Counted from the stretch's first letter, positions 709-17,099 are shown. The stretch: DNA of 32,000 bases from Edaphobacter aggregans (GCF_003945235.1 NZ_RSDW01000001.1:5790001-5822000), one strand, 5' to 3'. The notes: generated by a model not told the origin, from the sequence alone. A program made the numbers and translations.

Positions 709-724
709 CTGGGGAAATGCCTAG
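709..724 (-). promoter_or_regulatory. Palindromic box copy A (gene-sense CTAGGCATTTCCCCAG, 14/16 to copy G), upstream of the response-regulator gene
   Basis: It abuts -35-like TTGTTG (708-703). A 17-nt spacer follows, then -10 TATATT (685-680). The start codon is at 629. Confidence 0.6.
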
Positions 725-831
725 GTGGATGTTCCTTCCTTAGAAGGCTCGCTACTGTCTAGCCGACATGACGTTCATGGACAAGCTCATTTCACTGCGT
801 TCTCTCCGCGACACGGAAGTGAACAGAGTAC

Positions 832-847
832 CTAGGGTTTTTCCTAG
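832..847 (+). promoter_or_regulatory. Palindromic box copy B (CTAGGGTTTTTCCTAG, 14/16), upstream of the DcaP-like porin/glutaminase genes
   Basis: It abuts TTGTTG (848-853). A 17-nt spacer follows, then TACAAG (871-876). The start codon is at 930. Confidence 0.6.
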
Positions 848-929
848 TTGTTGTCACTAGCCCAAGAGCATACAAGTATCGCAAAGCTAATGGCAGCGAC
901 TTGTAGGACTCCAAGGAGGCACCAGACCT

Positions 930-2429
930 ATGAGATCGAACTTAAAGAATGCTAGGAATAACGCCTCTCTTGTCGCGGTATTATTTCTTTCCGTTATGTG
1001 GGGCCAGCCGGCTAAAGCGCAGTCCCAGGATACCCGGAAGCAGGATATACAGGAGCTCAAGGACAAACTTCAGCAATTGGAACAAATGATGGGGGAGGTG
1101 AAGGGGAAGATCACGGTGCTGGAGGGTCAGCCTGGCACGCAAAACTCAGAGGCCGGCGTTGGAGAGAGCAAGAGCGGGCCGAACGATGCCCTTGTCAGCT
1201 CAGTCGTCAACTCGCTTGATCACTATCCCGGAGCGCATGCTGCTGCAATACCCACAGTTGGCGCTCATGGTGCACAGGCGGACCAAAAGAAACCTGGATC
1301 AGAGAGCACCCTGGATATTTATGGATTCGTCATGATGGATTCCGGTTATGACTTCGGACAATCGGACCCAAGCTGGAATGACGTGTTACGACCAACGAAA
1401 CTCCCATCTTTTCCGAACGAGTTTGGGCCAAACGGACAGGCTTTTTTCAGTGTAAAGCAGACGAGATTTGGAACGAAGACGTCCACTCCGACTTCGTTTG
1501 GCGATCTGAAGACGACATTTGAGTTTGAGCTTTTCGGTACAGGTGTTGATGCAGGGCAGACCACATTCCGGCTTCGTCATGCATGGGGGGAAATGGGTCA
1601 CTTCGGCGCAGGGCAGACCTGGAGCCCGTTTATGGATATCAATGTCTTCCCGAACTCGATCGAATACTGGGGCCCTAACGGAATGGTTTTCTTCCGGAAT
1701 GTGCAGTTTCGGTGGACGCCGATCAAGACAGCGCATAACACATTCATGATTGCAGCAGAGCGTCCTGGAGCAAGCGGGGACCAGGGAGTTTACAGCGGCC
1801 GCATTGAGCTCTCGAACATTACACCTCAGTTCATTCTTCCTGATCTTTCTATGCAGGGCCACTTCGACCGGAAGTGGGGATATTTTCAGATTGCGAGCAT
1901 GTTCCGGAGAATTGCGTGGGTGGACAACAACGCGACGTCCAAGCTCAATTTCAGCGGTTCGGCATTTGGTTGGGGCATTAATGCGAGTTCGAACCTCAAA
2001 TTCAAAGAGAGCACTACGGGAAGGCTCCAACTGGTCTATGGCCATGGCATTCAGAATTATATGAACGACGCACCGATTGACATTGGCGTCCAGAATAACT
2101 TTTCCAACCCGATAACACCTATCAAGGGAGTTCCTCTGCCGATGATTGGCGCGGTTGCGTTTGTTGATCACAACTGGAGCCCAAAGTTCAGCAGCACGTT
2201 TGGAGGATCGATGCTGAATATCTGGAACTCAGATGCTGAGGCGCCGAGCGATTTTCACCAAGGATATTATGCGCTTACGAACCTGCTGTACTACCCGATC
2301 AAAAACGTGATGGCGGGCGGCGAGTTTCAGTATGGCCGGCGAGTGAATTTCCGGAACGGCTACAACTTCAACGACTATCGAGTGCAGTTTTCCTTCAAGT
2401 ATTCGTATGGCAAGACGTTTGCTTTCTGA
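930..2429 (+). CDS. DcaP-like outer-membrane porin with N-terminal coiled coil
   Basis: AAGGAGG sits 7 nt before the ATG. The signal peptide ends at AKA-QS. A heptad-like segment reads QDIQELKDKLQQLEQMMGEVKGKITVLEG. The barrel body follows (LDIYGFVMMDSGYDFGQ...FSVKQTRFG...FEFELFG) and ends ...FSFKYSYGKTFAF with a terminal aromatic residue. Confidence 0.8.
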   Translation: MRSNLKNARNNASLVAVLFLSVMWGQPAKAQSQDTRKQDIQELKDKLQQLEQMMGEVKGKITVLEGQPGTQNSEAGVGESKSGPNDALVSSVVNSLDHYPGAHAAAIPTVGAHGAQADQKKPGSESTLDIYGFVMMDSGYDFGQSDPSWNDVLRPTKLPSFPNEFGPNGQAFFSVKQTRFGTKTSTPTSFGDLKTTFEFELFGTGVDAGQTTFRLRHAWGEMGHFGAGQTWSPFMDINVFPNSIEYWGPNGMVFFRNVQFRWTPIKTAHNTFMIAAERPGASGDQGVYSGRIELSNITPQFILPDLSMQGHFDRKWGYFQIASMFRRIAWVDNNATSKLNFSGSAFGWGINASSNLKFKESTTGRLQLVYGHGIQNYMNDAPIDIGVQNNFSNPITPIKGVPLPMIGAVAFVDHNWSPKFSSTFGGSMLNIWNSDAEAPSDFHQGYYALTNLLYYPIKNVMAGGEFQYGRRVNFRNGYNFNDYRVQFSFKYSYGKTFAF

Positions 2430-2495
2430 GTAGAGGGCTGCGGTGGACCTTGTTCGAAAAATCATAGGTAATCGAGAGCGGAAAGGAGATCCACT

Positions 2496-3554
2496 GTGAA
2501 TGCACGTCGAATTTCTACTTTGGTTTTGATGGCAGCTTCGCTATTTTCCGAATATTCTTGCGCGGTTCCTGCAGTCGCTCAAACCCCAAAGGTCAGCCCG
2601 GTTGCCCCGCGACGGGAGCAGGTTGAGGCGGTCGTCAAAGAAGCCTACGAAAAATTTAGGAACGACACCAACGGAAAAAACGCTGATTACATTCCATATC
2701 TTGCAAAGGTAGATTCGAAGCTATTCGGAATAGCTATCGTCACGACGGACAACCAAGTCCTAACGATGGGAGATGTGAAATACGCGTTCTCCATCCAGTC
2801 GATCTCCAAGGTCTATTCTCTCGCACTCGCAATGGAGGAACTTGGTCCCGACAAGGTCTTTGAAAAAATCGGCTCTGAGCCTACTGGACGCCCCTTCAAT
2901 TCTCCAGTGGCGGTAGTTGATATGCCGACGCACTCGGGCAATCCATTCGTTAACGCAGGTGCCATTGCGACCGTTAGCCTGATCTCAGGCAGCACGGCGG
3001 ATGAGAAATGGAACAAGATTCTGAATTTCTACAGTAAGGCTGCAGGAGAAAAGCTGGTCCTGATTGATGAGGTGTACAAGTCGGAGGCGGCTACGAATAC
3101 GGGTAATAAAGCGCTGTCGTATCTGCTGGCGAAGTATGACCGGATCTATGCGGATCCGTTTGAGTCAGTAGATGTGTATACGAAGCAGTGCTCCGTCGGA
3201 GTGAATGCGACGCAGCTGGCGCGCATGGGTGCGACGTTGGCGAACAACGGAGTGAATCCGGCGACTGGCGAGCGAGTGATCAAAGCCGAGGATATTCCGC
3301 ACATTTTGAGCACGATGATGGTGGCAGGGCTGTATGACGGCTCGGGCACTTGGGCCTGGAACGTGGGTTTGCCGGCGAAGAGCGGCGTTGGCGGGGGGAT
3401 TGTTGCAATTGCTCCGGGGAAGGGCGCAATTGCGGTGTTTGCTCCGCCACTGGATGAGGCGGGAAACAGCGTGAAGGCGCAGGAGGTCATCCGGTACGTT
3501 GCAGAGAGGCTAAATTACAACATCTTTTCCCCGACCTCTGTTGGCTTCAAGTAG
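2496..3554 (+). CDS. glsA: Glutaminase A with Sec signal peptide (predicted periplasmic)
   Basis: The start is GTG with AAGGAG 7 nt upstream. The N-terminus MNARRISTLVLMAASLFSEYSCAVPAVA-QT looks like a signal peptide. The glutaminase core motifs are present: ADYIPYLAKVD, FSIQSISKVYSLALAMEELG, EPTGRPFNS and LPAKSGVGGGIVAI. Confidence 0.9.
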   Translation: MNARRISTLVLMAASLFSEYSCAVPAVAQTPKVSPVAPRREQVEAVVKEAYEKFRNDTNGKNADYIPYLAKVDSKLFGIAIVTTDNQVLTMGDVKYAFSIQSISKVYSLALAMEELGPDKVFEKIGSEPTGRPFNSPVAVVDMPTHSGNPFVNAGAIATVSLISGSTADEKWNKILNFYSKAAGEKLVLIDEVYKSEAATNTGNKALSYLLAKYDRIYADPFESVDVYTKQCSVGVNATQLARMGATLANNGVNPATGERVIKAEDIPHILSTMMVAGLYDGSGTWAWNVGLPAKSGVGGGIVAIAPGKGAIAVFAPPLDEAGNSVKAQEVIRYVAERLNYNIFSPTSVGFK

Positions 3555-3699
3555 TGGGAAAGTGCCTTCGCGGCGATAGATGATTTCGATTGTTTCCCTG
3601 CCGTCGGCGCGTGTGAATGAGGCTATGGGGCGGCGAGCCTGGCGGTTCCGATGTTTGATACGAGTCCGAATACCAACGGCAGCCCGAGATCGGCGATCA

Positions 3700-3798
3700 A
3701 TCCGTTTGACGCATGCGTTAAGGCTCAGGAGGTTATTCGCTATGTCGCCGAAGCCTGAGCTACAACCTCTTCTCTCCGATTTCTGTTGGTTGAAGTAG
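3700..3798 (+). pseudogene. Decayed relic of a second glutaminase 3' end
   Basis: 3713-3798 aligns base-for-base, at roughly three quarters identity by eye, with glsA 3469-3554. VKAQEVIRYVAE is retained, then a premature TGA and a frame change, then LSYNLFSPISVG versus LNYNIFSPTSVGFK. The relic ends with the same ...gaagtag. Weaker similarity may extend back to about 3620. Confidence 0.6.
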
Positions 3799-3845
3799 CT
3801 CAGCGACGAAGTGAATCGCCGTCGCTTACAAGGAGGCGTCATTCA

Positions 3846-5501
3846 ATGACAGCTGGGATCTCCATCTGCAGAGATTTTCGAGAACGTCAGAGATTTCTTG
3901 TTCGCGCTTGCCTATCCGTAAGCCTGTTTTTGGTTGTGCATCCGTGTAACGCCCAATCGTCGACACCCTCGATATTCAATGGCCCCTCCGACGCAATCGA
4001 CGGTGCATCGTCGATTCCCAAAGTCAGCCCTCCCCTGACTGAACGAGAAGAGGAAATGTTGCGGCTCATTCAGAGTCTCCAGGATCGCGTCGCCCGGCTG
4101 GAGGCTGAGAGGGGGACTGATTCGAAGGATATAAACTTTGATACCGAAGTGGAGGCGAAGAAGGCCTCTGCAAATGTTCTAGCGGCGACTGTTGTTGCTG
4201 TACCGCCGACAAGCAGAGATATCGCGAATCCTATCGATGAAGCCGCGAGGTCGCCCGTTGACGGTGTGAAGAGTCTAGGTGGAAGCGCTAGTGGTGGCCA
4301 GGAAGAAAGAAAGTTTTGGAGCCCCTACACACCGAATCTTGGTTTCAAGATAGCCAATACCGAGTACGGAGACGTAAGCCTTAGCATCTATACCTACGCT
4401 CGCTATCTGAACCAACGGGCGATCGAGCCAACATATACAAACGCGTTCGGCGTTACCAGCAATCTCCAACAACGGCAGGATTTTCAACTCAACAAACTAC
4501 AAATAAAGTTTCTCGGCTGGATGATGAGTCCTAAATTCCGTTACTTCCTCTATGCATGGACCTCGAACGCCACACAGGGGCAAGGAGCTCAGGTCGTACT
4601 CGCTGGAAATCTGAATTACAGCTTCAATAAGTACCTCACCGTTGGCGCGGGAGTCTTCTCATTGCCGGGCGCGAGGAGCGTCGAAGGCAACTTTCCGTTC
4701 TGGCTGAGTGTTGATAGTCGACTAATAGCTGACGAGTTCTTTCGCCCCTCATATTCCTCAGGCATTAAGGCCAGTGGAACCATCGCGAAGGGGCTGAGTT
4801 ACCAAGCCATGGTCGCGAATAATCGGAGCACACTGGGTGTCAGCGCAGCCCAGCTTCCCAACCACTTCAATACTATTTCTTCTGTGCTCCTCTGGATGCC
4901 TAAGGGCGATTACGGATTAGGCTGGGGCGACTTTGAACATCATGAATCACCTGTTACTCGTTTTGGCTTCCATTTCAACCATAGTGACGAGAACAAGCAA
5001 AGCCAGCCAAACAGCGATTCATTCGAGAATGTTCAGCTCAGGCTCTCCGATGGCAGCGTAATCTTTACGCCTAATCTCTTCGGGCCAGGCATTACGATCA
5101 CCGATGCAAGATATAAGATGGCCTCCTTCGACGCGGGGATCAAGTATCGCGGCTATGCACTAGAAGGTGAATATTACTGGCAGTGGCTCAATGACTTCCG
5201 TGGCACGAATACTTCAGGGCTGCCAACGGATTATGCCTATGGGTATCAGCTTCAGGGCTCAGCGATGGTCATCCCCAAAGCGCTTCAGATCTATGCGGGA
5301 GGATCGGAGATCATTGGCCAGTTCGGCCGCCCGTGGGACTTTCGTGCGGGCACAAACTACTTCCCGTTCAAGAACAAGGTCGTGCGATGGAACTCCGAGT
5401 TCCTCTACTTGTACAGATCCCCTGTCGGCTACACATCCGTTCCTTTTCCACTGGGAGGCACCGGACCGATCTTTCATACAACTCTGGAGCTAGCTTTCTG
5501 A
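3846..5501 (+). CDS. Outer-membrane beta-barrel (porin-like) with N-terminal coiled coil; paralog of 20203-21771
   Basis: I prefer the ATG at 3846 (AAGGAGG 9 nt upstream) over the ORF-track start at 3786, which lies inside the glutaminase relic. The signal peptide ends at CNA-QSS. The coiled-coil segment reads EREEEMLRLIQSLQDRVARLEAE. The protein ends ...FHTTLELAF. It is about 60 percent identical by eye to the 20203-21771 product. Confidence 0.75.
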   Translation: MTAGISICRDFRERQRFLVRACLSVSLFLVVHPCNAQSSTPSIFNGPSDAIDGASSIPKVSPPLTEREEEMLRLIQSLQDRVARLEAERGTDSKDINFDTEVEAKKASANVLAATVVAVPPTSRDIANPIDEAARSPVDGVKSLGGSASGGQEERKFWSPYTPNLGFKIANTEYGDVSLSIYTYARYLNQRAIEPTYTNAFGVTSNLQQRQDFQLNKLQIKFLGWMMSPKFRYFLYAWTSNATQGQGAQVVLAGNLNYSFNKYLTVGAGVFSLPGARSVEGNFPFWLSVDSRLIADEFFRPSYSSGIKASGTIAKGLSYQAMVANNRSTLGVSAAQLPNHFNTISSVLLWMPKGDYGLGWGDFEHHESPVTRFGFHFNHSDENKQSQPNSDSFENVQLRLSDGSVIFTPNLFGPGITITDARYKMASFDAGIKYRGYALEGEYYWQWLNDFRGTNTSGLPTDYAYGYQLQGSAMVIPKALQIYAGGSEIIGQFGRPWDFRAGTNYFPFKNKVVRWNSEFLYLYRSPVGYTSVPFPLGGTGPIFHTTLELAF

Positions 5502-5562
5502 AATGTAGGGCTAGTCGACTGACGATGTAAATGAATCAACGACGAATGAAAAAGGAGGCTCT

Positions 5563-6657
5563 GTGAAACGCACTTCGGACAATCTGCTTCATAGGCTCGT
5601 TTTTGGCTTATGTCTATGTGTGTCGCTGTGTTCTACATCTGGAACTGCACAGACTAATCCTCCTAATCAATTTGAGCTGAACGATTCGCACTTTCATCTT
5701 ACGAACTACGTTCAAGAAGGCACTGATATACATGAATTCCTGAAGATTATGGGCACAAAGGTCGGGCGCGTCGCGCTGTTCGGAATTCCTCTTCAGCAGC
5801 AGTGGTCTTATCTGAACTCCGGCGATACTGCGCCCACGTATTACCTACAGACCGACTCGCCTCTCTACTACTACTCATTTACCGATGCGAATATCGCAAT
5901 GACATATCGGTCACTCTCCAAGGAAGATCAGGCGCGCTTCGAACCCATGATCACAGGCTTCAACCCGACCGACATGTATGCGGCTGATCACATTCGTCGC
6001 GTCCTGCAGACTTTTCCAGGAGTCTTTTCGGGAATTGGAGAGTTCACGATTCATAAAGAGTTTGTTTCCTCCAAGATCCCAGGAGAAACTGCCAATCTTC
6101 AGAACCGCGCTCTCGACAGGATTCTGGACTTTGCCGGCGAGGTCGGGCTCGTTGTCATAATCCACAGCGACATGGACGTGCCGTTCCCTAAGGAAGGTGC
6201 GCCGCCCGCATATCTTGATCAAATGAAGGCGCTCCTTAAACGGCATCCTAATACCACAATCATTTGGGCACATACCGGCTTAGGCCGAGTGGTTCGTCCT
6301 ATCAAGGATCACGCTGCCAATCTAGCGTTGATCCTAAGCGATCCTGCATTCAAACATGTCTATTTCGATATCTCATGGGACGAAGTAGCTAAGTACGTCG
6401 TCGCAACTCCTGAATCTACCCAGACTAGTGCCGACCTCATCAATCGTTTCCCGGATCGCTTTCTGTTCGGCACTGACGAGGTCGCACCTTCCAGCCAGGA
6501 GTCTTACTTGAAGGTCTTCTATCAATACGGTCCTCTTTGGAAGTTGCTTACACCGGAAGCAAGCGAGAAGGTCCGTAAAGGAAACTTCGCGCGTCTTTTC
6601 GACGAAGCACGACCCAAAGTAAGAGCGTGGGAAAGCACCCACGCTAGCGGAAAATAG
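5563..6657 (+). CDS. Exported metal-dependent amidohydrolase (Amidohydro_2/TIM-barrel type)
   Basis: The start is GTG with AAAGGAGG upstream. The signal peptide ends at GTA-QT. Metal-ligand-like motifs are DSHFHL, VVIIHSDMD, IIWAHTG and LFGTDE. Confidence 0.8.
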   Translation: MKRTSDNLLHRLVFGLCLCVSLCSTSGTAQTNPPNQFELNDSHFHLTNYVQEGTDIHEFLKIMGTKVGRVALFGIPLQQQWSYLNSGDTAPTYYLQTDSPLYYYSFTDANIAMTYRSLSKEDQARFEPMITGFNPTDMYAADHIRRVLQTFPGVFSGIGEFTIHKEFVSSKIPGETANLQNRALDRILDFAGEVGLVVIIHSDMDVPFPKEGAPPAYLDQMKALLKRHPNTTIIWAHTGLGRVVRPIKDHAANLALILSDPAFKHVYFDISWDEVAKYVVATPESTQTSADLINRFPDRFLFGTDEVAPSSQESYLKVFYQYGPLWKLLTPEASEKVRKGNFARLFDEARPKVRAWESTHASGK

Positions 6658-6681: not shown

Positions 6682-7650
6682 CTAAAAAGAAACCGCGGCC
6701 GAGATCTGCAGCGAGTATCCCTGCAGAGTTGACCTATTCGAGAATTCTCGAAAATACTTGAGGCCCAGGCTCACCTTTCGCGCTGGCAGCATTACGTTTG
6801 AAGCGAATCCAAGGGAGTTGACCCGATAGTGTGCCTTCGCCTGATCCGGTGTGATCGTTGGCCCACTCTTATCAGTCGTCTGCCACTGTTGGTAGCCCAC
6901 TAACCCCAGTTGTAGACGCAAATCACTTTTCAACGGAACGGTGTGCATTAGCGAATAGTCGAGATTAAGGGCTTGCCCCGGATGAATTCCAGTGCCTTCT
7001 TGAACACCGTGGAATTCATACAACTCGAACGCGGAAATTGAGGTCGCTTTGTTGTCGGTTAGATAAAAGGATTCGCCCCCCGCAACGCAATGAGTCCAGT
7101 AGCCCGAACCAACATTGCTGTTGGAACTGGCATCGAATCTGCCGGTAGGCGCTAGGAACCCGTAGATAGCACGAGCGTCAACACGTTTTGTCTTCCAGCC
7201 GAGAATAAAGGGTTGGTAGTAAGAGTCTGCAAATCCGCCTCCGCCGCTGATAGCCCCCTGAGCATTGGAAGTTAGCGAGTTGTTGGCGATGGGCAGCGTG
7301 GCCACAAAGGAGTAGACAGGGCTGCCCAACATCCCTATCTTCTTTTTGCTGACCCAGACGAAACTGTTCATGTCCATCAATACCGAATTTTGCCCGGTAG
7401 CAACGACTTCGCCGTTGGCACCCTTCAAATGGTCGCGTGAGTAAAACAGAAAGGCGTTTGAGTAGGTAAATCCTGGCTCCGGTGTAACCCCAGAGTTGGT
7501 GGCGGTCATCCCCAGGGGGTAGACACCCCTGACCTGAGCTTTACCGGGTGCAATCATCGTCCAGATGGTCATGACCAGACAAAATACGGCAAATGACGAA
7601 GGCACACAGTCTTTACTTACGACCTCAGACTCCTTTCCGCCCAGATTCAT
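6682..7650 (-). CDS. Outer-membrane channel of the MetA-pathway (Phenol_MetA_deg-like) transporter family
   Basis: The hydrophobic leader ends at GKA-QV. The sequence shows an alternating beta-strand pattern with GGGFADSYYQPFILGWK and GSGYWTH. The protein ends ...LQISAAVSF. It is the last gene of the DyP operon. Confidence 0.7.
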   Translation of the reverse strand: MNLGGKESEVVSKDCVPSSFAVFCLVMTIWTMIAPGKAQVRGVYPLGMTATNSGVTPEPGFTYSNAFLFYSRDHLKGANGEVVATGQNSVLMDMNSFVWVSKKKIGMLGSPVYSFVATLPIANNSLTSNAQGAISGGGGFADSYYQPFILGWKTKRVDARAIYGFLAPTGRFDASSNSNVGSGYWTHCVAGGESFYLTDNKATSISAFELYEFHGVQEGTGIHPGQALNLDYSLMHTVPLKSDLRLQLGLVGYQQWQTTDKSGPTITPDQAKAHYRVNSLGFASNVMLPARKVSLGLKYFREFSNRSTLQGYSLQISAAVSF

Positions 7651-7772
7651 CTGTGCATGCCCTCAAGACTGTGTAGGTTGCTGGCTGGTCCTTTGCTCCC
7701 CGCTGCGCTTCGCTAGCCAACGTGCAAAGGGGAAGAGGAGAACGAGGCCAACGATCGCAATCACAACGACCA

Positions 7773-8531
7773 TCACGGCCATCCGTGGGTCACTGAAGTT
7801 TGTTTAGCAACCACTAATGCAGCAGCGATATTGCGCTGCGCAGTGCCTAGTGCCATAACGCTTCTTGTCTTGACTGCAGGACCTCCAAGAAACCATCCGA
7901 TAATTGAACCAGCCACAAGGAGGAGGATGCTGGCAAGCACCCCTCGAGATACATATAAGCTCAGGATGTTTTGGATGTTCGCCACAAACATCAGCAGGAT
8001 TAGCAACATCAGGGCAAACTTTGACGCATTGCTGAACAAAGGTTCGATGCGGGCTGCAATACCTTCGAGGCCGGCCTTCACCGCAAGGCCAATTCCTAAC
8101 GGAAGCAACATGAGAAGGAGCAGGGAACTGGCGATCTTAGCGGGATCGACCGAAACTCCGCTGAGTAAAAGGGGCAATACTAATGGCATGTAGGCAACTG
8201 ACAAGATCATCAGCAGCACAGTCAAGCCGACAGAAAATGCAAGATCACCCTTAGCAATTCCTGCGAGCAGAGGAATGAATGGAGCCCCGGGCGCTGTTCC
8301 CAGCAACAACAGCGCGACACCCAAGGATCCGTCGAGTTGCAGTAGCCTTGCGATGGCCATTGCAGCTAGCGGCATCAGGACAAAATTTGCCAGCAGTGCG
8401 AAAGTGACTAGTCTGGCATTTCGCAACGGGGCAACGACCCGGCCCACAGTGAGACTCAAACCCACGGCAAGCATGGATGAAACGACAAAAATAATCGTCG
8501 ATAGAGAAGCCGCTTTATTTACGAATTCCAT
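7773..8531 (-). CDS. Bile acid:sodium symporter (BASS/SBF-like) family transporter, apparently frameshifted near the 3' end
   Basis: The protein is polytopic and hydrophobic, with GTAPGAPFIPLLA and ALGTAQRNIAAALVVA motifs. The ORF stops 8 codons after the A-run at 7798-7802. The expected last TM helix is encoded in another frame down to 7663 (see findings). Confidence 0.8.
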   Translation of the reverse strand: MEFVNKAASLSTIIFVVSSMLAVGLSLTVGRVVAPLRNARLVTFALLANFVLMPLAAMAIARLLQLDGSLGVALLLLGTAPGAPFIPLLAGIAKGDLAFSVGLTVLLMILSVAYMPLVLPLLLSGVSVDPAKIASSLLLLMLLPLGIGLAVKAGLEGIAARIEPLFSNASKFALMLLILLMFVANIQNILSLYVSRGVLASILLLVAGSIIGWFLGGPAVKTRSVMALGTAQRNIAAALVVAKQTSVTHGWP

Positions 8532-8600
8532 GAACCTTCACCTAATTCGAATCTCATCTCGATGCTTCAGAGTCGGTGATGGTGTTCCTACGACAGGCAT

Positions 8601-9632
8601 CTATTTGGAGTGAAGCGGAGTCATCGCAAGGTTTCGCCAGAAATTCTCCAGGGACTCTACACCGCCAAAAAGCGTTGTAAATATTGTGGAATCGGCCAAC
8701 AGAATGTCCCCTGCGCGACTTCCGGTAGGTGGCATCCAAAGGAAATTGTTGAACTCGGTATTTCCTGCTTCTGTGAAGGGATGCGGTCTGGACAGATCGA
8801 TCGGTTGCGAAGCCAAAATGCGAATCGACTTCGTATCGTCAGTGGTCAAGGCGTAGTGTGGCAGATGCGGATGGAAGTTAAATGTCGTAACTCCTTTGAG
8901 CCAGCCACGCGAATCCAGATCTCTCAATGTGTTGAGTGGAGCAATTTGATTTGTTCCTTTGACAACTGCAGGACGAAGACCGTAGCGATTTTCAACAGGT
9001 ACTCCCAGGCCTTTCATCAGGGAGCGCGTGTACTTTCCAAAGCGTTGCTGACGCGGCACCAAAGGATCACCGTGGTGGGCATACTCCATCGCCCGTTCCT
9101 TTTGGTCGGACGAGACACCCACGTCGTGGTGTGGACCAAGGATCAGGCATGTCCCTTCCCGCGTAAGAAACTGTTGAATCGCTTCGATCTCTTCTAGGGT
9201 GGCTTCCTGCTCCGTAACCATGTGGTCAAGACCAAACACCATCAAAGTGTCAGTGTCTGCGAGCACACCCGCGTCGATAGGGCATCTCTGCCCCGCCTGG
9301 TCAATCCGCTGATAAACCGCGACTGGTTGTTCTGTTGCCTCACCTACTACCCGCTGAAACGTCAACGTCGATAGGTGGAACAACTCAAGCGTTCCAGAGA
9401 TCCCTTGCAGAAACATCTGTGCTGAAAACTCCGGGGTCTCGTAATTCGGCCACGCTACGCGGCGAACTTCGGTGATCGTTGAGAAGCGATTATCCAGTTC
9501 TGTTACATCTCGATTCGCTTCCCATGGATAACTCCATGTCCAATAAATGCTGAATCGCCGCTTGCCCGAAGCATATTTTCTTGGTAGCTGTATCTGGTTA
9601 TAGGTACGTGGTCCGGATTTTGAGTTACTCAT
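8601..9632 (-). CDS. Hypothetical cytoplasmic protein (343 aa), no family recognised
   Basis: This is a long ORF in the operon, 21 nt after the DyP stop, with AAAGGGA before the ATG. It has no signal peptide. His-containing motifs are FGLDHM, LILGPHHDVG, EYAHHGDP and FHPHLPHY. The segment DTLMVFGLDH...EEIEAIQQFLTREGTCLILGPHHD is loosely reminiscent of a ThuA/GATase1-like fold, but that is speculation. Confidence 0.7.
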   Translation of the reverse strand: MSNSKSGPRTYNQIQLPRKYASGKRRFSIYWTWSYPWEANRDVTELDNRFSTITEVRRVAWPNYETPEFSAQMFLQGISGTLELFHLSTLTFQRVVGEATEQPVAVYQRIDQAGQRCPIDAGVLADTDTLMVFGLDHMVTEQEATLEEIEAIQQFLTREGTCLILGPHHDVGVSSDQKERAMEYAHHGDPLVPRQQRFGKYTRSLMKGLGVPVENRYGLRPAVVKGTNQIAPLNTLRDLDSRGWLKGVTTFNFHPHLPHYALTTDDTKSIRILASQPIDLSRPHPFTEAGNTEFNNFLWMPPTGSRAGDILLADSTIFTTLFGGVESLENFWRNLAMTPLHSK

Positions 9633-9653
9633 CTCAATCCCTTTCTCCAGGAT

Positions 9654-10994
9654 TCATGCAGAACGGGCCTGGCTCCTATCTGAGAGTGCCGCAAGGTATC
9701 GCAGCGCCCTGATACCCGGCAGGAAGAAGTAAGCTCCCCCTCGCAAGGTCGTAAAAGACGGCAGGCCTGTGATCTTCCTCCGAATGGGTCGTTTTGGGAT
9801 GGTCATGTCAAAGCTTCCATCCTGTGTGCCAAAAATCGGATCGCGTTCGTTACCTAGCTCGTGAAAATTGGGATCGTTCACCCATACGTTCATCGCAAAC
9901 TCAAACTGTCGCACGAGACTCGCGCAACCGATGAACGCCGCAATCCCCCGTTCTATCCCATCCTCAGGCTTGCCCTCCGGCAACGGCGGACCGTACGTCC
10001 CCCCCCGCCGAATCATCCTTCTCCGCTGCATGTTTGCCGCCGTATCTCGCGGGTTCATGCGCCGAATATGCGAGCCGAGCGGACACCCATAGCCGTACGG
10101 GTCCATCTTGGCGTAGTTGAAATCGTTCGTGCGCTTCATGTCTCCGCCGAGCTCCGGGTCGTCTTTGTCAGGCGTCAGCACCAGCGGAGCGCCGCTGCGC
10201 CATCGGCCCATCAGCTTCGCGGCAATCCATTCCTGCTGCTCCGGTGTCGCGCCGTTTTGCCGCAGAAAATCGCGAAAGGCCCCAACGTGTTCCTCGAGCC
10301 TGAGGTACGCGAGATAGCTGCCGTTGTGCGAAAGAATCTCCGGTTGCGGCAGCCCGGCAGGCGGTCCGTTTTCATCCGGATAACCGAGAAAAAATTCTCC
10401 GGCATTAATCGGAGGGCCAGAGCCGGGAGTTGGTTCACCATCAATTCCCTTGATGTAGGGCTGCGACAGGCGATCGCGATACCCAAAGTGCTCATGTGCG
10501 TATGTAAAAGGAGGAATCGCTTCCAGATCGAGCGACGACAAAACCTTCACTCTATCGCATTGGAGAAGGTGTTCCCGATGCTCCTGCCTGCATCGTTCGC
10601 GCTCGGCGACATCTCGGGCGAACAAGACAACAATGGCATGAAGATCAGGACTCGCTAGCCCTCCCACCCAGTGCTTTGGATCGTTGTCGCCCGTAGCGCC
10701 GACGATCTCCGCACGGGCAGCCATACCTTGACGAAACTCCTCAGGAAATGTGGCAAGAGACGTTTCATCAACCCCAAGAGCTCGCAAGCCGTTCCAGGTA
10801 AAGGCCACACTCACCCACCTGGTGTACGAGTCATTGGATTCGATAGCTTTTGCAGTGCCGACTTTTTCTAGAATCCCGTTGAGCCACTCGCGCGCTCCGG
10901 CATTCTGTCGAAACGTTAGAAATTCATATCTCGCTGCAAGAGCGTGTGGTCGCGAAATCAGGAAGTGCTGAATGTCTTCGATTTCAAGCCTCAT
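9654..10994 (-). CDS. DyP-type (dye-decolorizing) heme peroxidase, cytoplasmic
   Basis: GAGGAGGG precedes the ATG. The N-terminus is DIQHFLI... The GXXDG-like motif is EHFGYRDRLSQP, with the Asp retained. The proximal-His context is PLGSHIRRMNPRD. MIRRGGTYG is also present. There is no Tat/Sec signal. Confidence 0.9.
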   Translation of the reverse strand: MRLEIEDIQHFLISRPHALAARYEFLTFRQNAGAREWLNGILEKVGTAKAIESNDSYTRWVSVAFTWNGLRALGVDETSLATFPEEFRQGMAARAEIVGATGDNDPKHWVGGLASPDLHAIVVLFARDVAERERCRQEHREHLLQCDRVKVLSSLDLEAIPPFTYAHEHFGYRDRLSQPYIKGIDGEPTPGSGPPINAGEFFLGYPDENGPPAGLPQPEILSHNGSYLAYLRLEEHVGAFRDFLRQNGATPEQQEWIAAKLMGRWRSGAPLVLTPDKDDPELGGDMKRTNDFNYAKMDPYGYGCPLGSHIRRMNPRDTAANMQRRRMIRRGGTYGPPLPEGKPEDGIERGIAAFIGCASLVRQFEFAMNVWVNDPNFHELGNERDPIFGTQDGSFDMTIPKRPIRRKITGLPSFTTLRGGAYFFLPGIRALRYLAALSDRSQARSA

Positions 10995-11067
10995 GTGCCC
11001 TCCTCAAATCACATCTCGAGGTTGCGAGCTAGGAGAAAAACAACATTCATGCACCAGAAGAGTGCCG

Positions 11068-11646
11068 CTACTGCATCAGGTCGAGCATTCCGGAAAAGGT
11101 CGCCTTGAGTTTCAGTGCCTTCTTGATCTCATCTGCGGAGACATACGGATACTCTCCGTATTCCAGAAAGCTCGGGCGTTGGTGTTCACGAACGAACCGA
11201 ACGAATGCCGGAGTATTTGTCTTCCAGTCCTCTGGAAATCCTTCGAGGTTTTCAAAGACAGTGTTCAAGCCATATTGGGAGAACAACGCTACTGCGTCTT
11301 CGGTGTACTTATCAAAATCGGTGTCGAAGATTCCTTGATACATGAAATATGTATCGTTCCCAATGTCGAAGAGAACCCATCGCAGGTAATGAAGTTTGAG
11401 CGTTGCAAGTGCTTCCGGCAACCCTGCGATTGTCTTCTCGATTGTCTTGCCATATTCGCGGATAACATCCTCTCGCCCAGGCTTGATCTTCGCAATGATC
11501 GTGAATCCATAACAGGCCGGTGTTCGAGGATAGAGCGGTCCGTATCTTCCATTTTGGAGTGTGAAATACCCCTCTTTTGGAATGGCCATCGCTTGGGGTT
11601 TGGTTGGATCAATTTCCTTTTCGGGTGCGACTGCTGGAGTTGCCAT
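11068..11646 (-). CDS. Hypothetical protein (192 aa), first gene of the DyP operon
   Basis: I prefer the ATG at 11646 (GGGAGGAG 6 nt upstream) over the ORF-track start at 11667. The sequence is soluble-like: GFTIIAKIKPGREDVIREYG, LHYLRWVLFD, GIFDTDFDKYTEDA. I do not recognise a family. An alpha+beta-barrel-like fold is a guess. Confidence 0.75.
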   Translation of the reverse strand: MATPAVAPEKEIDPTKPQAMAIPKEGYFTLQNGRYGPLYPRTPACYGFTIIAKIKPGREDVIREYGKTIEKTIAGLPEALATLKLHYLRWVLFDIGNDTYFMYQGIFDTDFDKYTEDAVALFSQYGLNTVFENLEGFPEDWKTNTPAFVRFVREHQRPSFLEYGEYPYVSADEIKKALKLKATFSGMLDLMQ

Positions 11647-11713: not shown

Positions 11714-11729
11714 CTAGGAAAATCCCCAG
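11714..11729 (-). promoter_or_regulatory. Palindromic box copy C (gene-sense CTGGGGATTTTCCTAG, 14/16), upstream of the DyP operon
   Basis: It abuts TTTCGG (11713-11708). A 17-nt spacer follows, then TAGCCT (11690-11685). The start codon is at 11646. Confidence 0.55.
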
Positions 11730-11769: not shown

Positions 11770-12768
11770 TTAGTCGTCTTCCACTGGAGTCCAGGTTTTA
11801 TCCGGATTGAAGCGTTCCATCTTCTTGAATTCATCGAGCGTAGACGGCCCTAAATCCTTTTCGTACACAACGCCGTCGTTGTTCACGATGAACGTTTTCA
11901 CTCCGGTGACGCGGTACTCGGCAGGGGAAGCTATAAGGGCGAAGCCACCGATCATCGCGCCCTTAATCACATAGTCCAACTCCCCCACCGGTGTGGCTGC
12001 GGGACCCTGACCCTTTAGCACTTTGAAGAAGTAGCCATGATAAGGCTCCGCTTTGCTGGTATAGCCCTGTGTAATTGCCTCCGCAATCTCTTCACTGAAG
12101 GGACCGCCTAAGGTGCCGTCTGCGTTTCGCCACGACAGACCATCCTGTTTGCCAGGGGTGCTAATAATACGTTGGGCGTATTGATTCACGTCGTAGCCTT
12201 CGCGCTTTTGCAAAGCGTATTCCTTCTGCGCCTCTACGTACTCATGAGAGATGTTGATGGCATCGAGTTCATTGGAGCCGATGCGGCGATTCAAGATCTC
12301 CTGCCTGCCCGCGTTGCTGTCGAAAAACCATCGATTGCTCCTCTTGACGATCGGTACCGGGAACGGCCAGTCCTCGTTGCCTACAAGGAGATAGGCCCAT
12401 AATCCGTTCTTCGGTTCAACGGAAACTTTCGTCTTTTCGCGGGCCTCCGCCGCGAACTCAGCGGCACGTTGCCGGTCCTGCACGACATCTCCGGTGAACG
12501 CAATGTCGTGGCCATCTGGGCCAAAAATCTGCGCAAGTGCAGTCTCGTCAAATTGGTCGGCTGCACGGACCAGCGCATCAGCAGCCTGCTGGGAGGTATC
12601 AAAGGTTTTTGTCCCTGCCGGAATACCTCTTGTAGGCGCCGAAGCCGAAGCCGTTATTGCTGACTGCTGAGCGACGGAAAGTATCGGCACGAACAAACAT
12701 GCCAAAGCCACGACGCTCAGAACCCAGGCACATAGGGAGACATTTCTATTCGTAGACGTTGGTTTCAT
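11770..12768 (-). CDS. DUF2950 family exported protein
   Basis: I prefer the ATG at 12768 (AGAGGAG 7 nt upstream). The signal peptide ends at SVA-QQ. The C-terminal signature is YHGYFFKVLKGQGPAA...DYVIKGAMIGGFALIASPAEYRVTGVKTFIVNNDGVVYEKDLG. Confidence 0.85.
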   Translation of the reverse strand: MKPTSTNRNVSLCAWVLSVVALACLFVPILSVAQQSAITASASAPTRGIPAGTKTFDTSQQAADALVRAADQFDETALAQIFGPDGHDIAFTGDVVQDRQRAAEFAAEAREKTKVSVEPKNGLWAYLLVGNEDWPFPVPIVKRSNRWFFDSNAGRQEILNRRIGSNELDAINISHEYVEAQKEYALQKREGYDVNQYAQRIISTPGKQDGLSWRNADGTLGGPFSEEIAEAITQGYTSKAEPYHGYFFKVLKGQGPAATPVGELDYVIKGAMIGGFALIASPAEYRVTGVKTFIVNNDGVVYEKDLGPSTLDEFKKMERFNPDKTWTPVEDD

Positions 12769-12797
12769 TGCAGCGCTCCTCTGTTCGCCTTCCATGC

Positions 12798-14294
12798 CTA
12801 CCTCCGCCGTCCACCGCCACGGGCGCCGCCGCCACCTCGAGATCCCATACTTCGAGATCCCATGCTGGAGGCGCCCCGGTTGCTGCTGGCGCGTGCGCTT
12901 GATCCGCTGAACCCTCCAGATCCACCTCCAAATGCACCCCGGTTTCCACCGCCGCTGCCCCGCGAAAGATCCCGACTTCCTGCACTGGTTCCGCCTCCGC
13001 CAAGTCCTCCGCCACGCGCGCCTCCGCCAGTTCCTCCCCCTCGATCGCCTCCCCCAAGTCCTCCGGATCGATTGCCCAGACCGCCTCCTGCCTCTCGATT
13101 GCTGGCTAAATTGCCGCCCTCTCGGCCAATCTGCTGCCTTGCGCTCGCTTGACGATTAGCCAGCGAGTCGCCCCGAGCCGAACCGCCAAATCGATCCGCC
13201 GTTCCACGATCCCCATAGGGAGCGCCACCGCGATGTTCCGGGTTATGCTGCCACTTGTTGCCTGCATTGCCACCTGCAGGCAGTTGCGACGGCCGGTTGC
13301 CAGCGCCACCAACACCTCCAACTCCACCGGCGCCACCAACACCTCCTACTCCGCCAGCGCCACCTACGCCACCGGGACGACCAGCACCACCTACGCCGCC
13401 TGCACCACCGACACCTCCAACTCCTCCGGCACCACCCCGAGAGGGTAGTTGGGAAGGTCGGTTGCCGCCGCCAATGTTCGTGTTGCGATTGAAATTATTG
13501 TTGCGGTTGATCGTGATGTCGTTGTTACCACCCCAGCCGCACCCCCAGCCCCAACCGCCACCCCAGAATGCGCCCATCGCTATACCAACGCCGAAAGAGA
13601 TCGCCATCCCCGCGGCATAGTAACCGGGAGGCGGATAGTAAATAGGAGGGTAAGGATACACCGGTGGTCCATACACTACTACTGGATTGTAAGAAGGAAC
13701 GTACACCACTTGAGGATTCGCCTGCTCGATGACGATCGTGCTCTTGCTTTCGATGACCTTGGTCTCTACTTTTTGCTGTTCACTCGACTTCAGATTGCCG
13801 GTTCCCTGGGCCTTCTTACGCATTCGCTGGACTGCATCCATCACATCGCTTTGCTGTGCGAGAAACGCGTTGCCGAGATCCGTCGTCCACTGGATATCGT
13901 CCGCCAGGCGCTTGACTAGGTCAGGCAGTCCGGCCAGAGCCTGGACGCTTGGATCCCATGTCTGCTTGGCCACAGCATCGGCGAGGGCTTTATCTTTCAG
14001 CCCCGGATTTTTCGCAAGCCACTGTTGGAGTTGAATAATCTCAAGCGGATACGTGGAGGCGGCAAGGGTTTGGGCCAACATCGGATCTGGAAAAAGCGCA
14101 ATCGGTGCAACCAGTGAATCCAATTGGTCCGAAGGAATCTTGGTAGCCGGTGCAGGCGATGTCGTCGATGCCGCCTGTGGCGGAGAAGGGGACTGCAACT
14201 CCGCCACTGTGTCACCTGGCACGATAACGATGGCGCAGAGGACTACCGTCAAACGTCGAAGTCCTGCTGCGAATGTTTCAGTCTTCGGATTCAT
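12798..14294 (-). CDS. DUF3300 family exported protein with a long Gly/Arg/Ser-rich C-terminal low-complexity region
   Basis: GGAGGGA precedes the ATG. The DUF3300 core reads LDSLVAPIALFPDPMLAQTLAASTYPLEIIQLQQWL...WDPSVQALAGLPDLVKRLADDIQWTTDLGNAFLAQQSDVMDAVQRMRKKAQ. A Pro/Tyr-rich segment follows, then GWGWGCGWGG, then about 250 aa of G/R/S-rich sequence ending GGGRRR. Confidence 0.85.
   Translation of the reverse strand: MNPKTETFAAGLRRLTVVLCAIVIVPGDTVAELQSPSPPQAASTTSPAPATKIPSDQLDSLVAPIALFPDPMLAQTLAASTYPLEIIQLQQWLAKNPGLKDKALADAVAKQTWDPSVQALAGLPDLVKRLADDIQWTTDLGNAFLAQQSDVMDAVQRMRKKAQGTGNLKSSEQQKVETKVIESKSTIVIEQANPQVVYVPSYNPVVVYGPPVYPYPPIYYPPPGYYAAGMAISFGVGIAMGAFWGGGWGWGCGWGGNNDITINRNNNFNRNTNIGGGNRPSQLPSRGGAGGVGGVGGAGGVGGAGRPGGVGGAGGVGGVGGAGGVGGVGGAGNRPSQLPAGGNAGNKWQHNPEHRGGAPYGDRGTADRFGGSARGDSLANRQASARQQIGREGGNLASNREAGGGLGNRSGGLGGGDRGGGTGGGARGGGLGGGGTSAGSRDLSRGSGGGNRGAFGGGSGGFSGSSARASSNRGASSMGSRSMGSRGGGGARGGGRRR
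13303..13436 (-). repeat. In-frame 9-nt periodic repeat encoding (GGA/GGV)n inside the DUF3300 gene
   Basis: The + strand reads ccaccaacacctccaactccaccggcgccacc... in repeated units. On the coding strand this gives GGAGGVGGVGGAGGVGGAGRPGGVGGAGGVGGVGGAGGVGGVGGAG. Confidence 0.7.
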
Positions 14295-14450: not shown

Positions 14451-14466
14451 CTAGGGAAAACCCTTA
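14451..14466 (-). promoter_or_regulatory. Palindromic box copy D (gene-sense TAAGGGTTTTCCCTAG, 13/16), upstream of DUF3300-DUF2950
   Basis: It abuts TATCGG (14450-14445). A 17-nt spacer follows, then TAGGCT (14427-14422). The start codon is at 14294. A weaker look-alike, CAAGGGATTCCCGAA, with one central base fewer, lies at about 14323-14337 in the leader. Confidence 0.5.
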
Positions 14467-14588
14467 TACGCAGCAGAGGTCTGTATCAGGGTCCGATCCG
14501 GTGCAGCCAGCGACGGGAAAACTTGTTATATGGCAAGATCGCGATGGCAGTTGGTCAGTTTGTCTGGCTCGGCAATACTCCACTGTGC

Positions 14589-15785: not shown

Positions 15786-15815
15786 GAGCTTTGTCCTTTC
15801 AGTGCGCACGGACAA

Positions 15816-15831
15816 TTAGGAAAATCCCTAA
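15816..15831 (-). promoter_or_regulatory. Palindromic box copy E (gene-sense TTAGGGATTTTCCTAA, 13/16), upstream of the membrane-protein gene
   Basis: It abuts TTGTCC (15815-15810). A 17-nt spacer leads to AAAGCT (15792-15787), only 1 nt before the ATG at 15785. Confidence 0.5.
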
Positions 15832-15899
15832 CAGGTTCGAAATGTCGTAGCTGCGCTAAAGGAACGAGCAGGCAAGTTATGTCAAAGACTAAAGACACG

Positions 15900-16808
15900 T
15901 CACTGAATTCCAGCGATACCCTTGTTCTGAAGAATCCGCACCACGACGCGACGATTCTCGGCTTCCGAATCATTCGCATTGCCCGAGTCCACTTGCCGGC
16001 TCTCGCCCATCGCGCCGGGAGCCAGCATTCTCGAAAGTGGGACATGGCCCTCCTGCTGGAGGTAGGTAGCCACAGCATTGGCGCGGTCTTCGCTTAGTTT
16101 CTGGTTCAGTGCGGCGCTGCCGGACGAGGAGGCGTAGCCTTTCACCTGGATCACGTAGCCGTTCACGGTCTCGGCCTTTTGCGCCAAGGCCAATAGGGGG
16201 GCATTGTATTGTGGGTCTAGCTTAACCTTGCCGTTTCCGAAGTAGACTGTTACCTCATCGTAGATGTAGTAATCGTCGAGTTGGCCGAAGCGTGCGGTAT
16301 TGGCGGCGATTAAAGCCTTGTGCTCGGCCAGCTTTTTCTGCTGTTCCGTCAACTGTGCCTGTTGTTCTTTTAATGCCGCGTTCTGCTCCTCCAGCTCCTT
16401 TTGGTTGGCAGCCGCTTGCTGGGCTGTTTCATGCACGCCGGCACTAATAGCCTGGGCTTGTTCGAAATCGTTGCCTTTGAATCGAATGGTGTTCGCCACG
16501 AGTTGGTTCTGAGCGTCATAGCTCCCCTCTACCCGAATCGGAAGACCGGGGATCAGAGCCGCCATCGACATTTTCTTGTTGCGCGCCTTGAGCGCACCTT
16601 GTAGTTGACCAACATCGGTGCTCTCGGTTAGAAGAACGACCACTTTGGGTGAGTTAGATGTCTGCAGCTCGAGGGTGTCACCGCTGCGCGCTTTTATGAT
16701 GCCTTCAACCTTCGTGTTCTGGGCGTAGACTGCACTGCTTAGGACCGCCAATCCCATAAGCAACAGGGCTGATACGGATACGATTCTGCGTGATTTGCCT
16801 TGCGTCAT
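15900..16808 (-). CDS. OmpA-family protein: exported N-terminal domain, coiled coil, C-terminal OmpA-like peptidoglycan-binding domain
   Basis: I prefer the ATG at 16808 (GGAGAG 5 nt upstream). The signal peptide ends at VYA-QN. The coiled-coil segment is QKELEEQNAALKEQQAQLTEQQKKLAEHKA. The OmpA-like C-terminus reads VQVKGYASSSGSAALNQKLSEDRANAVATYL...NRRVVVRIL. Confidence 0.85.
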   Translation of the reverse strand: MTQGKSRRIVSVSALLLMGLAVLSSAVYAQNTKVEGIIKARSGDTLELQTSNSPKVVVLLTESTDVGQLQGALKARNKKMSMAALIPGLPIRVEGSYDAQNQLVANTIRFKGNDFEQAQAISAGVHETAQQAAANQKELEEQNAALKEQQAQLTEQQKKLAEHKALIAANTARFGQLDDYYIYDEVTVYFGNGKVKLDPQYNAPLLALAQKAETVNGYVIQVKGYASSSGSAALNQKLSEDRANAVATYLQQEGHVPLSRMLAPGAMGESRQVDSGNANDSEAENRRVVVRILQNKGIAGIQ

Positions 16809-16921
16809 AGCATCTCTCCAATCGGCCGCGTTTAACATGCGACCTGGTCTTCTCATCATCGTGTTGATTCTGAAAACCCTGCTGCACACTGTATGTTTAG
16901 GGGATCGTCTGAGATTAGCAA

Positions 16922-16937
16922 CTAGGGAAATCCCTAA
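16922..16937 (-). promoter_or_regulatory. Palindromic box copy F (gene-sense TTAGGGATTTCCCTAG, 15/16), upstream of the OmpA-family gene
   Basis: It abuts TTGCTA (16921-16916). A 17-nt spacer follows, then AAACAT (16898-16893). The start codon is at 16808. Confidence 0.6.
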
Positions 16938-17083
16938 AGCGCGAGGATCAAGATGAATCGTAACTGATCCCGTCGCCCGTTCCTGTTGTCTGATTGCGAC
17001 TTAGTTGATCGGCAGATACGTATGCTGACCATCACCCGCTTGTTACGCGAAATTCTACTCACAGCACGCGTAACGCTCGGACG

Positions 17084-17099
17084 CTAGGGATTTCCCTAG
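17084..17099 (+). promoter_or_regulatory. Palindromic box copy G (CTAGGGATTTCCCTAG, perfect 7-bp arms), upstream of DUF4136-DUF481
   Basis: It abuts TTGTAG (17100-17105). A 17-nt spacer follows, then TAGAAA (17123-17128). The start codon is at 17256. Confidence 0.6.

Follow-up and report, generated by a model that had tools for sequence, protein, structure and literature searches.

We analysed a 32,000-nucleotide stretch of the genome of Edaphobacter aggregans (GCF_003945235.1, NZ_RSDW01000001.1:5790001-5822000), referred to here as the window, in the left half of which seven copies of a 16-bp dyad, CTAGGGA-TT-TCCCTAG (hereafter the box), lie between genes. A box is present at every directon start between 0.2 and 19 kb (Table 1). 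Boxes A and B lie between the divergent genes for a receiver-only response regulator and a porin, and boxes F and G between divergent OmpA-like and DUF4136 genes; box C precedes an operon that begins with a 192-amino-acid (aa) protein and a DyP-type peroxidase, box D the DUF3300-DUF2950 operon, and box E a 398-aa membrane protein. An earlier reading of this DNA (the original prediction) had made the same gene assignments, with which Pfam agrees. Several mechanically called open reading frame (ORF) starts were too far upstream and were corrected to 17256 (DUF4136), about 16808 (OmpA-like), 15785 (membrane protein) and 11646 (first gene of the DyP operon), based on translation and on exact protein match to a JGI soil contig. 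In the case of DUF4136, the protein read from ATG 17256 has exact matches in two JGI metagenome samples, the listed TTG start being too far upstream. We infer that the unit behind box B continues beyond the 232-nt gap at 3554-3786.

Table 1. Boxes, predicted promoter hexamers and the genes behind them, with positions counted from the first nucleotide of the window.
Feature	Position	Strand	Box sequence	Predicted −35	Predicted −10	Content and remarks
Box A	709..724	-	CTAGGCATTTCCCCAG	TTGTTG 708-703	TATATT 685-680	Upstream of the receiver-only response regulator
Receiver-only response regulator, 129 aa	240..629	-				Behind box A; Pfam Response_reg 1.2e-21
Box B	832..847	+	CTAGGGTTTTTCCTAG	TTGTTG 848-853	TACAAG 871-876	
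Unit behind box B	930..6657	+				DcaP-like porin 930-2429, glutaminase 2496-3554, unknown protein of 571 aa 3786-5501, amidohydrolase 5563-6657; Pfam
Box C	11714..11729	-	CTGGGGATTTTCCTAG	TTTCGG 11713-11708	TAGCCT 11690-11685	
Operon behind box C, five genes	6682..11646	-				192-aa unknown protein, 446-aa distant DyP-type peroxidase, 343-aa unknown protein, SBF transporter, MetA-pathway-type outer-membrane protein
Box D	14451..14466	-	TAAGGGTTTTCCCTAG	TATCGG 14450-14445	TAGGCT 14427-14422	
DUF3300-DUF2950 operon	11770..14294	-				Behind box D; Pfam 8.6e-73 and 3.3e-104
Box E	15816..15831	-	TTAGGGATTTTCCTAA	TTGTCC 15815-15810	AAAGCT 15792-15787 (poor, −10-like)	
Membrane protein, 398 aa	14589..15785	-				Behind box E; no family match
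Box F	16922..16937	-	TTAGGGATTTCCCTAG	TTGCTA 16921-16916	TAAACA or AAACAT within 16899-16893	
OmpA-like exported protein	15900..16808	-				Behind box F; start corrected to ATG 16808
Box G	17084..17099	+	CTAGGGATTTCCCTAG	TTGTAG 17100-17105	TAGAAA 17123-17128	Equals the consensus
DUF4136 lipoprotein and DUF481 outer-membrane protein	17256..19008	+				Behind box G; DUF4136 start corrected to 17256

The copies were located by a mismatch search with copy G, CTAGGGATTTCCCTAG, allowing up to three mismatches on both strands of the whole 32-kb window and taking 100 shuffled sequences as the null. The search reproduced all seven sites of the original prediction at their coordinates and on their strands, with 0 to 3 mismatches to copy G. 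When both strands of near-palindromes are counted there are 9 matches against an expectation of 0.22, a number that none of the 100 shuffles reached. A position weight matrix (PWM) built from the seven sites gives them scores of 21.7 to 26.9 bits, and the next-best unrelated position in the window scores 8.6 bits. Given this gap, no weaker copies exist within coding sequence or beyond 17.1 kb, where the original prediction had likewise placed none. With corrected starts, coding sequence makes up 89.6% of positions 240-19008, and all seven boxes fall in the other 10.4%, each upstream of a gene or operon as had been predicted.

Alignment of the seven sites with their flanks revealed no conservation on the distal side. 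On the gene side, TTGnnn directly adjoins the box (TTT or TAT takes its place in two copies), and a TAnnnT-like hexamer, the A of which is invariant, follows after 17 nt. The centre of the dyad is T-rich (ATTT or TTTT) toward the gene in 7 of the 7 copies. Behind box E, the ATG at 15785 comes only 2 nt after the predicted −10; the transcript of this gene would be leaderless or near-leaderless, or else its start or promoter is mis-assigned.

A scan of one genome per species (185,579 species) with the 18-mer TAGGGATTTYCCTAGTTG returned at least 120 stretches, and all results on related loci given below refer to the matches listed unless another sample is named. At least 116 of the stretches belong to the Acidobacteriota, and every one that carries a name below phylum is from the Terriglobia, including Acidobacteriaceae, Acidoferrales, Korobacteraceae, Terracidiphilus, Sulfotelmatobacter and Edaphobacter sp. 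HDX4 (L008, with the exact 18-mer). Four of the listed stretches come from other phyla (L017, L053, L061, L088) and look like chance matches, of which about 34 would be expected database-wide by an estimate that assumes uniform base composition. The perfect 18-mer at L088:3962-3977, in a contig of 72% GC binned as Gemmatimonadaceae, is probably due to chance; one of its neighbour genes shares 67% identity with a gene from an acidobacterial locus. PWM scores are bimodal in the 956 kb of listed stretches, too, with at least 230 sites at 16 bits or more. The acidobacterial sites are nearly all intergenic, the apparently intragenic calls being short spurious ORFs or over-extended starts, and the co-oriented gene start lies at a median of 127 nt downstream. 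Sites with a co-oriented start only outnumber those with an opposite start only by 100 to 28 (p = 1e-10). The original prediction had considered that the box might be a dispersed repeat of the repetitive extragenic palindrome or miniature inverted-repeat transposable element (REP/MITE) kind, indifferent to upstream regions and orientation; in the related loci both an upstream preference and an orientation bias are present.

For the anatomy of the box we used 92 sites in related loci that were not picked by the search pattern and hence form an unbiased sample. Their consensus is a-CTAGGGATTTCCCyAG-T(96%)-t(54%)-G(90%)-y, with the T at +16 and the G at +18, and with this promoter-side flank the box takes the 20-mer form ACTAGGGATTTCCCTAGTTG. 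The two half-sites carry similar information, about 10-12 bits each, and the distal flank carries about 0 bits. Such near-equal conservation of the two halves fits a dimer and not sigma region 4 alone. After a fixed gap of 17 nt come a T (72%) and an A (63%), followed by an A-rich stretch, and TAnnnT stands at offset +39 in 28% of the 222 sites with full flanks (seeded sites included), against 0.6% in the background. The −10 resembles the housekeeping TAnnAT. In the −35 hexamer 3 of 6 positions are conserved, and it is therefore suboptimal in the same way as in activator-dependent promoters. Position 13 is C in 37% of the 92 sites while its dyad partner is A in 96%. C at −3 and A at −1 give weak mirror signals, which suggest that the dyad extends over 22 bp and that the −35 reinforces one of its sides. 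The box is a cis-regulatory site: an oriented dyad, coupled to and phase-locked with a sigma-70-type promoter. Of the dyad symmetry that had originally been proposed, the 7-2-7 layout with two conserved halves stands; full symmetry does not, as the T-rich centre and the T-n-G both face the gene. If transcription starts 7 nt after the predicted −10, the box would span about −52 to −37, with its centre at about −44.5. A fixed distance and a box abutting a −35-like TTG, both found here, are what class II-type activation calls for.

The genes behind the boxes recur as well. A Pfam scan and clustering of 150 genes downstream of boxes placed DUF3300 first, with DUF2950 as the second gene (17 of 150), followed by the response-regulator receiver domain (16, of which 14 are receiver-only orthologues), Ysc84 (12), sortase (8), beta-carbonic anhydrase and DcaP porins (6 each), and fumarase C, Orn/Lys/Arg decarboxylase and DUF481 (4 each). 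DUF3300 is thus the commonest box-driven family, and 18 of the 21 members of its cluster are box-driven. Further recurrent downstream families are AI-2E transporters, OmpA/DUF5666 proteins, DUF1508, DUF892 and AsmA/YhdP, and DUF4136 and SulP-STAS transporters recur elsewhere within the same loci. When the operon-first genes of the window are followed individually, their homologues are directly box-driven in 17 cases for the receiver-only regulator, 6 of 12 for DcaP, 3 of 4 for the 192-aa protein, 5 of 6 for DUF3300, 3 of 8 for the OmpA-like protein and 4 of 6 for DUF481. Orthologues of the receiver-only regulator stand behind a box in at least 14 other genomes. Homologues of operon-internal window genes are found in these loci too, but have no box to themselves; those of the glutaminase occur there as downstream genes. 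Because the box stands before the same families across the Terriglobia, the set can be described as a conserved regulon. In several genomes (e.g. L034, L042, L114) a homologue of the 398-aa membrane protein is the third gene after box-DUF3300-DUF2950, which ties this protein functionally to that pair. Homologues of all five genes of the box C operon also recur in other Terriglobia box loci; its 446-aa DyP-type protein is below the Pfam and NCBIfam cut-offs. Overall, the gene content suggests envelope remodelling together with pH and CO2 homeostasis. To the envelope and stress character of the original prediction, the glutaminase, beta-carbonic anhydrase, SulP transporters and amino-acid decarboxylases suggest adding a pH/CO2 theme. 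Acid or envelope stress as the inducing signal is a guess from this content.

Among the 933 ORFs of the box loci, the only recurrent regulators are members of the response-regulator superfamily (45, spread over 37 loci) and a HisKA_3 kinase (21, over 20 loci). A NarL-type regulator with receiver (REC) and GerE domains is found in about 21 box loci, and the usual gene order is kinase, NarL-type regulator, box, receiver-only regulator, box, DUF3300, or a close variant. The kinase begins with a signal or membrane-spanning segment, which is followed by some 310 aa of periplasmic domain resembling ABC substrate-binding proteins (PF04392), a second transmembrane segment, HisKA_3 and HATPase. By sequence, the best solved-structure matches of the regulator are NarL (7e-28), VraR, RcsB, DesR, EvgA and DevR (4e-16). 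Neither kinase, regulator nor receiver-only protein reaches an NCBIfam equivalog cut-off, the best models being MctS/MctR at scores far below threshold; the receiver-only protein comes closest to NCBIfam receivers of the MctR/NarL type, for none of which it reaches the cut-off. Regulators with 66-88% identity to the reference sequence show almost no variation in the recognition helix, LSEKTVEFHKHHIM. Two genomes have a gene for beta-carbonic anhydrase inserted between those for the kinase and the regulator (L086:1890-2525, L003:1392-1871). A second REC-GerE type, with the helix TVA[FY]HK, is itself directly box-driven (L002:3478-4225, L050:1143-1911), which hints at a cascade from this box to another regulon.

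As a control for bias we took 80 metagenome loci that had been fetched by alignment to the regulator, not by the box, and split them by recognition helix. Where the helix is TVEFHK (40 loci), this box was found in 26 loci (57 sites) and a second dyad, CTGTCA-N4-TGACAG, in 5; where it is TVA/RFHK (29 loci, 44-50% identical), this box was found in 0 and the second dyad in 19. Fisher tests by helix class gave 8e-8 for this box and 4e-5 for CTGTCA-N4-TGACAG. Eighteen of the TVEFHK loci have a co-oriented box at a distance of 43-202 nt past the stop codon of the regulator gene. The second dyad, in full aCTGTCA-N4-TGACAGt, is intergenic and has 33 sites in 19 of 31 loci from distant relatives, where about 0.3 would be expected; it frequently precedes the regulator gene by 70-108 nt or follows closely behind it (loci L171-L201, e.g. 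L177:79-104 and L179:3410-3435). In the 956 kb of Terriglobia box loci it occurs 7 times, 3 of them exact, and it is absent from the window. CTGTCA-N4-TGACAG is probably the operator of a sister two-component system. The split by helix links each regulator subfamily to its own dyad, and this linkage, computational as it is, is the strongest support for the assignment of the candidate regulator. In the wider version considered below, the sister dyad would point to a larger family of kinase-regulator-box modules among soil bacteria.

Regulators with the helix TVMFHKY are accompanied by a syntenic variant, CTATCAGTTTTCCTAGTTGC, 16-18 nt past the regulator stop codon, in which the proximal half and the TTG are kept and the distal half is lost (L146, L147, L151, L163, L164, L166, L167, L169). 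Canonical boxes follow about 650 nt further on in L163, L167 and L169, and since this subgroup keeps canonical boxes nearby, covariation between helix and box within the Terriglobia proved not informative. A GTGGA-N2-TCCAC palindrome that is enriched in the regulator loci is an artefact, being the coding sequence of the TVEFHK helix. On one 35-kb soil contig (Ga0210403_10000648; L144 and L157) there are two paralogous regulators of the TVEFHK type, an arrangement that suggests several sensors feeding one operator.

Based on these observations, we consider it reasonably probable that the box is the operator of a NarL-type response regulator with a HisKA_3 partner, acting as a class II-type activator of an envelope and pH-stress gene set. 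Two inverted half-sites of about 7 bp at short fixed spacing, and a genomically linked REC-GerE regulator with a HisKA_3 kinase, are the marks of a NarL/FixJ operator, and all were found. In such a system, the periplasmic solute-binding-like (PF04392) sensor of the kinase would perceive the signal and the kinase would phosphorylate the NarL/FixJ regulator. The phosphorylated regulator dimer (receiver plus GerE helix-turn-helix, helix LSEKTVEFHKHHIM) would then bind the 16-bp dyad as part of a composite promoter and, from about −44.5, touch sigma region 4 and the alpha subunit, thereby recruiting RNA polymerase. This would switch on a dispersed and often clustered regulon, in which DUF3300-DUF2950 with the membrane protein, DcaP, the OmpA-like protein, DUF4136-DUF481, Ysc84, sortase and AsmA/YhdP would stand beside a pH/CO2 part made up of glutaminase, beta-carbonic anhydrase, SulP-STAS transporters, Orn/Lys/Arg decarboxylase and fumarase C. 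The box-driven receiver-only protein, whose nearest matches are NarL-type receivers, would probably compete for phosphoryl groups and in this way give feedback to the phosphorelay. The original suggestion of a single dimeric regulator of an envelope or stress regulon is supported by the conserved Terriglobia gene families and by the promoter phase.

Several points weigh against assigning the box to this regulator in this way. The kinase-regulator pair lies outside the window, the link to it resting on other genomes, and half of the TVEFHK-type loci have no box directly downstream of the regulator. The association between regulator and box is confounded with lineage, as clades could differ in both for unrelated reasons. 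The TVMFHKY subgroup is still found near canonical boxes, which argues that the helix position does not simply set specificity. At the level of the site, the T-rich centre always faces the gene and T16 and G18 are as conserved as the dyad, features not accounted for by a plain symmetric dimer. At box E the −10 is poor and the start codon too near. Finally, the −35 and −10 hexamers were assigned by pattern, and binding, activation and transcription starts are predictions from sequence.

We also entertain, tentatively and with more doubt than belief, a wider version in which the box is the cis-code of a Terriglobia-wide master regulon. It would comprise tens of operons per genome, in islands like that at 0.2-19 kb, and would serve these bacteria of acid soils as a general response to envelope, pH and CO2 stress, with paralogous kinases converging on one operator through the invariant helix and the receiver-only protein acting as a phosphate sink.

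There are other possible explanations for the box. One is that a real promoter-coupled operator is bound by something else, either an unlinked factor or a box-driven orphan NarL paralogue, and that the linked pair is a mere neighbour or member of the regulon. In favour of such a binder stand the Pfam result that no window protein is a DNA-binding regulator, and the half of the regulator-selected loci that have no box immediately downstream; synteny is linkage, not binding, and two box-driven REC-GerE paralogues are at hand (L002:3596-4225 and L050:1270-1911). We nevertheless think it rather unlikely, given that no further transcription-factor family recurs among the 933 ORFs of the box loci, that relatives of the orphan type (helix TVAFHKYR) are box-free in 23 loci and carry the other dyad, and that the link between box and regulator persists in loci picked by the regulator alone.

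Promoter geometry bears on the sign of regulation. An operator for a repressor, be it the same regulator or another, that blocks upstream polymerase contacts until the signal arrives is distinctly unlikely. Repressors mostly bind across the −35, the −10 or the start site, at positions that vary, whereas the box lies wholly upstream of the −35 and, in about 220 sites, keeps its distance to the −10 to the exact nucleotide. The strongly conserved −35-like TTG could mean that the promoters are intrinsically active, and the sites are unusually near consensus, as in tightly repressed regulons; with 3 of 6 positions conserved, however, the −35 is suboptimal, which is typical of activator dependence, and NarL-family precedents at such a position are activators (PMC13486717).

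Strict phase to the −10 and fixed orientation would also be expected if the 20-nt motif were an extended −35 read by an alternative stress sigma factor, without a separate binding factor. T16 and G18 being as conserved as the dyad, the lineage that keeps the promoter-proximal half and TTG while losing the distal half, and a gene content that resembles a general stress regulon all lean the same way. We judge this very improbable, as the distal half (about −52 to −46) is beyond the reach of sigma region 4 yet equally conserved, the −10 looks like the housekeeping TAnnAT and, as indirect evidence, no sigma-factor gene recurs in the 117 listed box loci. Autoregulation by a sigma factor was considered and rejected, since the two Sigma70_r4_2 matches downstream of boxes are cross-hits of response-regulator GerE domains. 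That the box is a dispersed REP/MITE repeat, or an RNA hairpin or terminator, without promoter function, as a palindrome with many copies per genome and a possible 6-bp RNA hairpin of −8 to −11 kcal/mol might lead one to suppose, can practically be dismissed: the repeat is ruled out by flanks without conservation beyond 20 nt on the distal side and by sites that lie upstream of, and co-oriented with, genes, and the RNA element by a weak hairpin (z only −1 to −2), no U-tract, non-compensatory A/C variation at position 13, the position of A/B and F/G between divergent genes where there is nothing to terminate, and no Rfam match at the gathering threshold in the whole window or at E up to 1 in 1-18 kb.

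The part of the window to the right of 19 kb stands apart from the boxes in content. Homologues of its genes in the listed box loci number 0 for MpaB, 0 for QueF and 1 for a 522-aa unknown protein. From 27000 to 31100 the GC content is 62-64% and the GC skew −0.3 to −0.43, though genes for a major facilitator superfamily (MFS) protein, DUF899 and a family 2 glycosyltransferase (GT2) are on the + strand; the composition of this segment differs from that of the box-bearing left half.

No paper in the searchable literature contains the 14-mer or the 16-mer, in line with the original view of the box as undescribed, and GGGATTTCCC appears there in unrelated contexts only, mostly as an NF-kappaB site. 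Searches of the same literature for DUF3300/DUF2950 and for Acidobacteria regulons gave nothing relevant, and no published Terriglobia regulon was found. Terriglobia are among the most abundant soil bacteria and are genetically almost unstudied. A near-invariant 20-nt box provides a computational handle for co-regulated genes in hundreds of genomes and metagenome bins, and it places DUF3300, DUF2950, DUF4136, DUF481, Ysc84 and the 398-aa membrane protein in one physiological context, with a shared role if the wider version is true. In that case it would also be the first regulatory map for a dominant soil class. The value lies in this map and in function discovery; the mechanism, a NarL-type regulator at about −44, is conventional and holds no new transcription biology.

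Several well-studied systems resemble the one proposed here. The 7-2-7 site of Escherichia coli NarL consists of two inverted heptamers (TACYYMT) with a 2-bp gap, bound by a dimer with a GerE-type helix-turn-helix that is served by a HisKA_3-type kinase. The box shares the 7-2-7 layout, and among solved structures NarL is the one that the candidate regulator matches best by sequence; the heptamer, however, is unrelated, NarL sites vary in position and number whereas the box is single, near consensus and phase-locked to the −35, and the candidate's NCBIfam NarL score is 112 against an equivalog cut-off of 250. In E. coli EvgS/EvgA, a periplasmic solute-binding-like kinase passes its signal to a NarL-family regulator that acts on an inverted repeat and leads to acid resistance, including a glutaminase/decarboxylase circuit. 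The regulon described here likewise contains glutaminase, amino-acid decarboxylases and carbonic anhydrase, an acid signal being a guess in our case. EvgS is a hybrid kinase of the BvgS type that works by phosphorelay, whereas the kinase here is a simple HisKA_3 kinase with one PF04392-like domain, and the candidate regulator scores 74.6 against the EvgA cut-off of 251. The lux and tra boxes, dyads of 18-20 bp with their centre at about −42 to −45, next to the −35 or overlapping it, are bound by GerE-family dimers for class II-type activation. LuxR and TraR differ in sensing acyl-homoserine lactones through an N-terminal ligand domain and not by phosphorylation, in their small regulons, and in site sequences unrelated to the box.

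In content, the regulon is like those of RpoS in Gammaproteobacteria and PhyR-EcfG in Alphaproteobacteria through its OmpA-like proteins, YciE/F-type DUF892, YegP-type DUF1508, glutaminase, decarboxylases, single-domain receivers and exported proteins without known function. Those regulons are defined by an alternative sigma factor, whereas here a housekeeping-type promoter is joined to an upstream dyad and no sigma gene is linked.

The 20-bp Dev box of Mycobacterium tuberculosis DosR/DevR is TTSGGGACTWWAGTCCCSAA, and CTAGGGA-TT-TCCCTAG differs from it in half-site and in spacing. The candidate regulator matches DevR (4e-16) more weakly than NarL, VraR and RcsB, and its recognition helix is different. 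The box is therefore not a Dev box itself, lacking both the consensus match and DevR orthology, and would only work like one. The sensor here is periplasmic and binding-protein-like where the DosR system has a cytoplasmic GAF-haem sensor, and phylum and gene content differ too. The resemblance to DosR/DevR lies in a palindrome with a GGGA...TCCC core, a NarL-family dimer (here proposed), a centre at about −43.5, a good −10, and a multi-operon stress regulon with many genes of unknown function. At hspX the box of DosR, a member of the NarL family, has its centre at −43.5 next to a suboptimal −35, and cryo-electron microscopy places the protein in contact with region 4 of sigma A and with both domains of alpha (PMC13486717). 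As a two-component operator at a class II position, the system belongs to a well-known type; this box and its regulon are new within that type.

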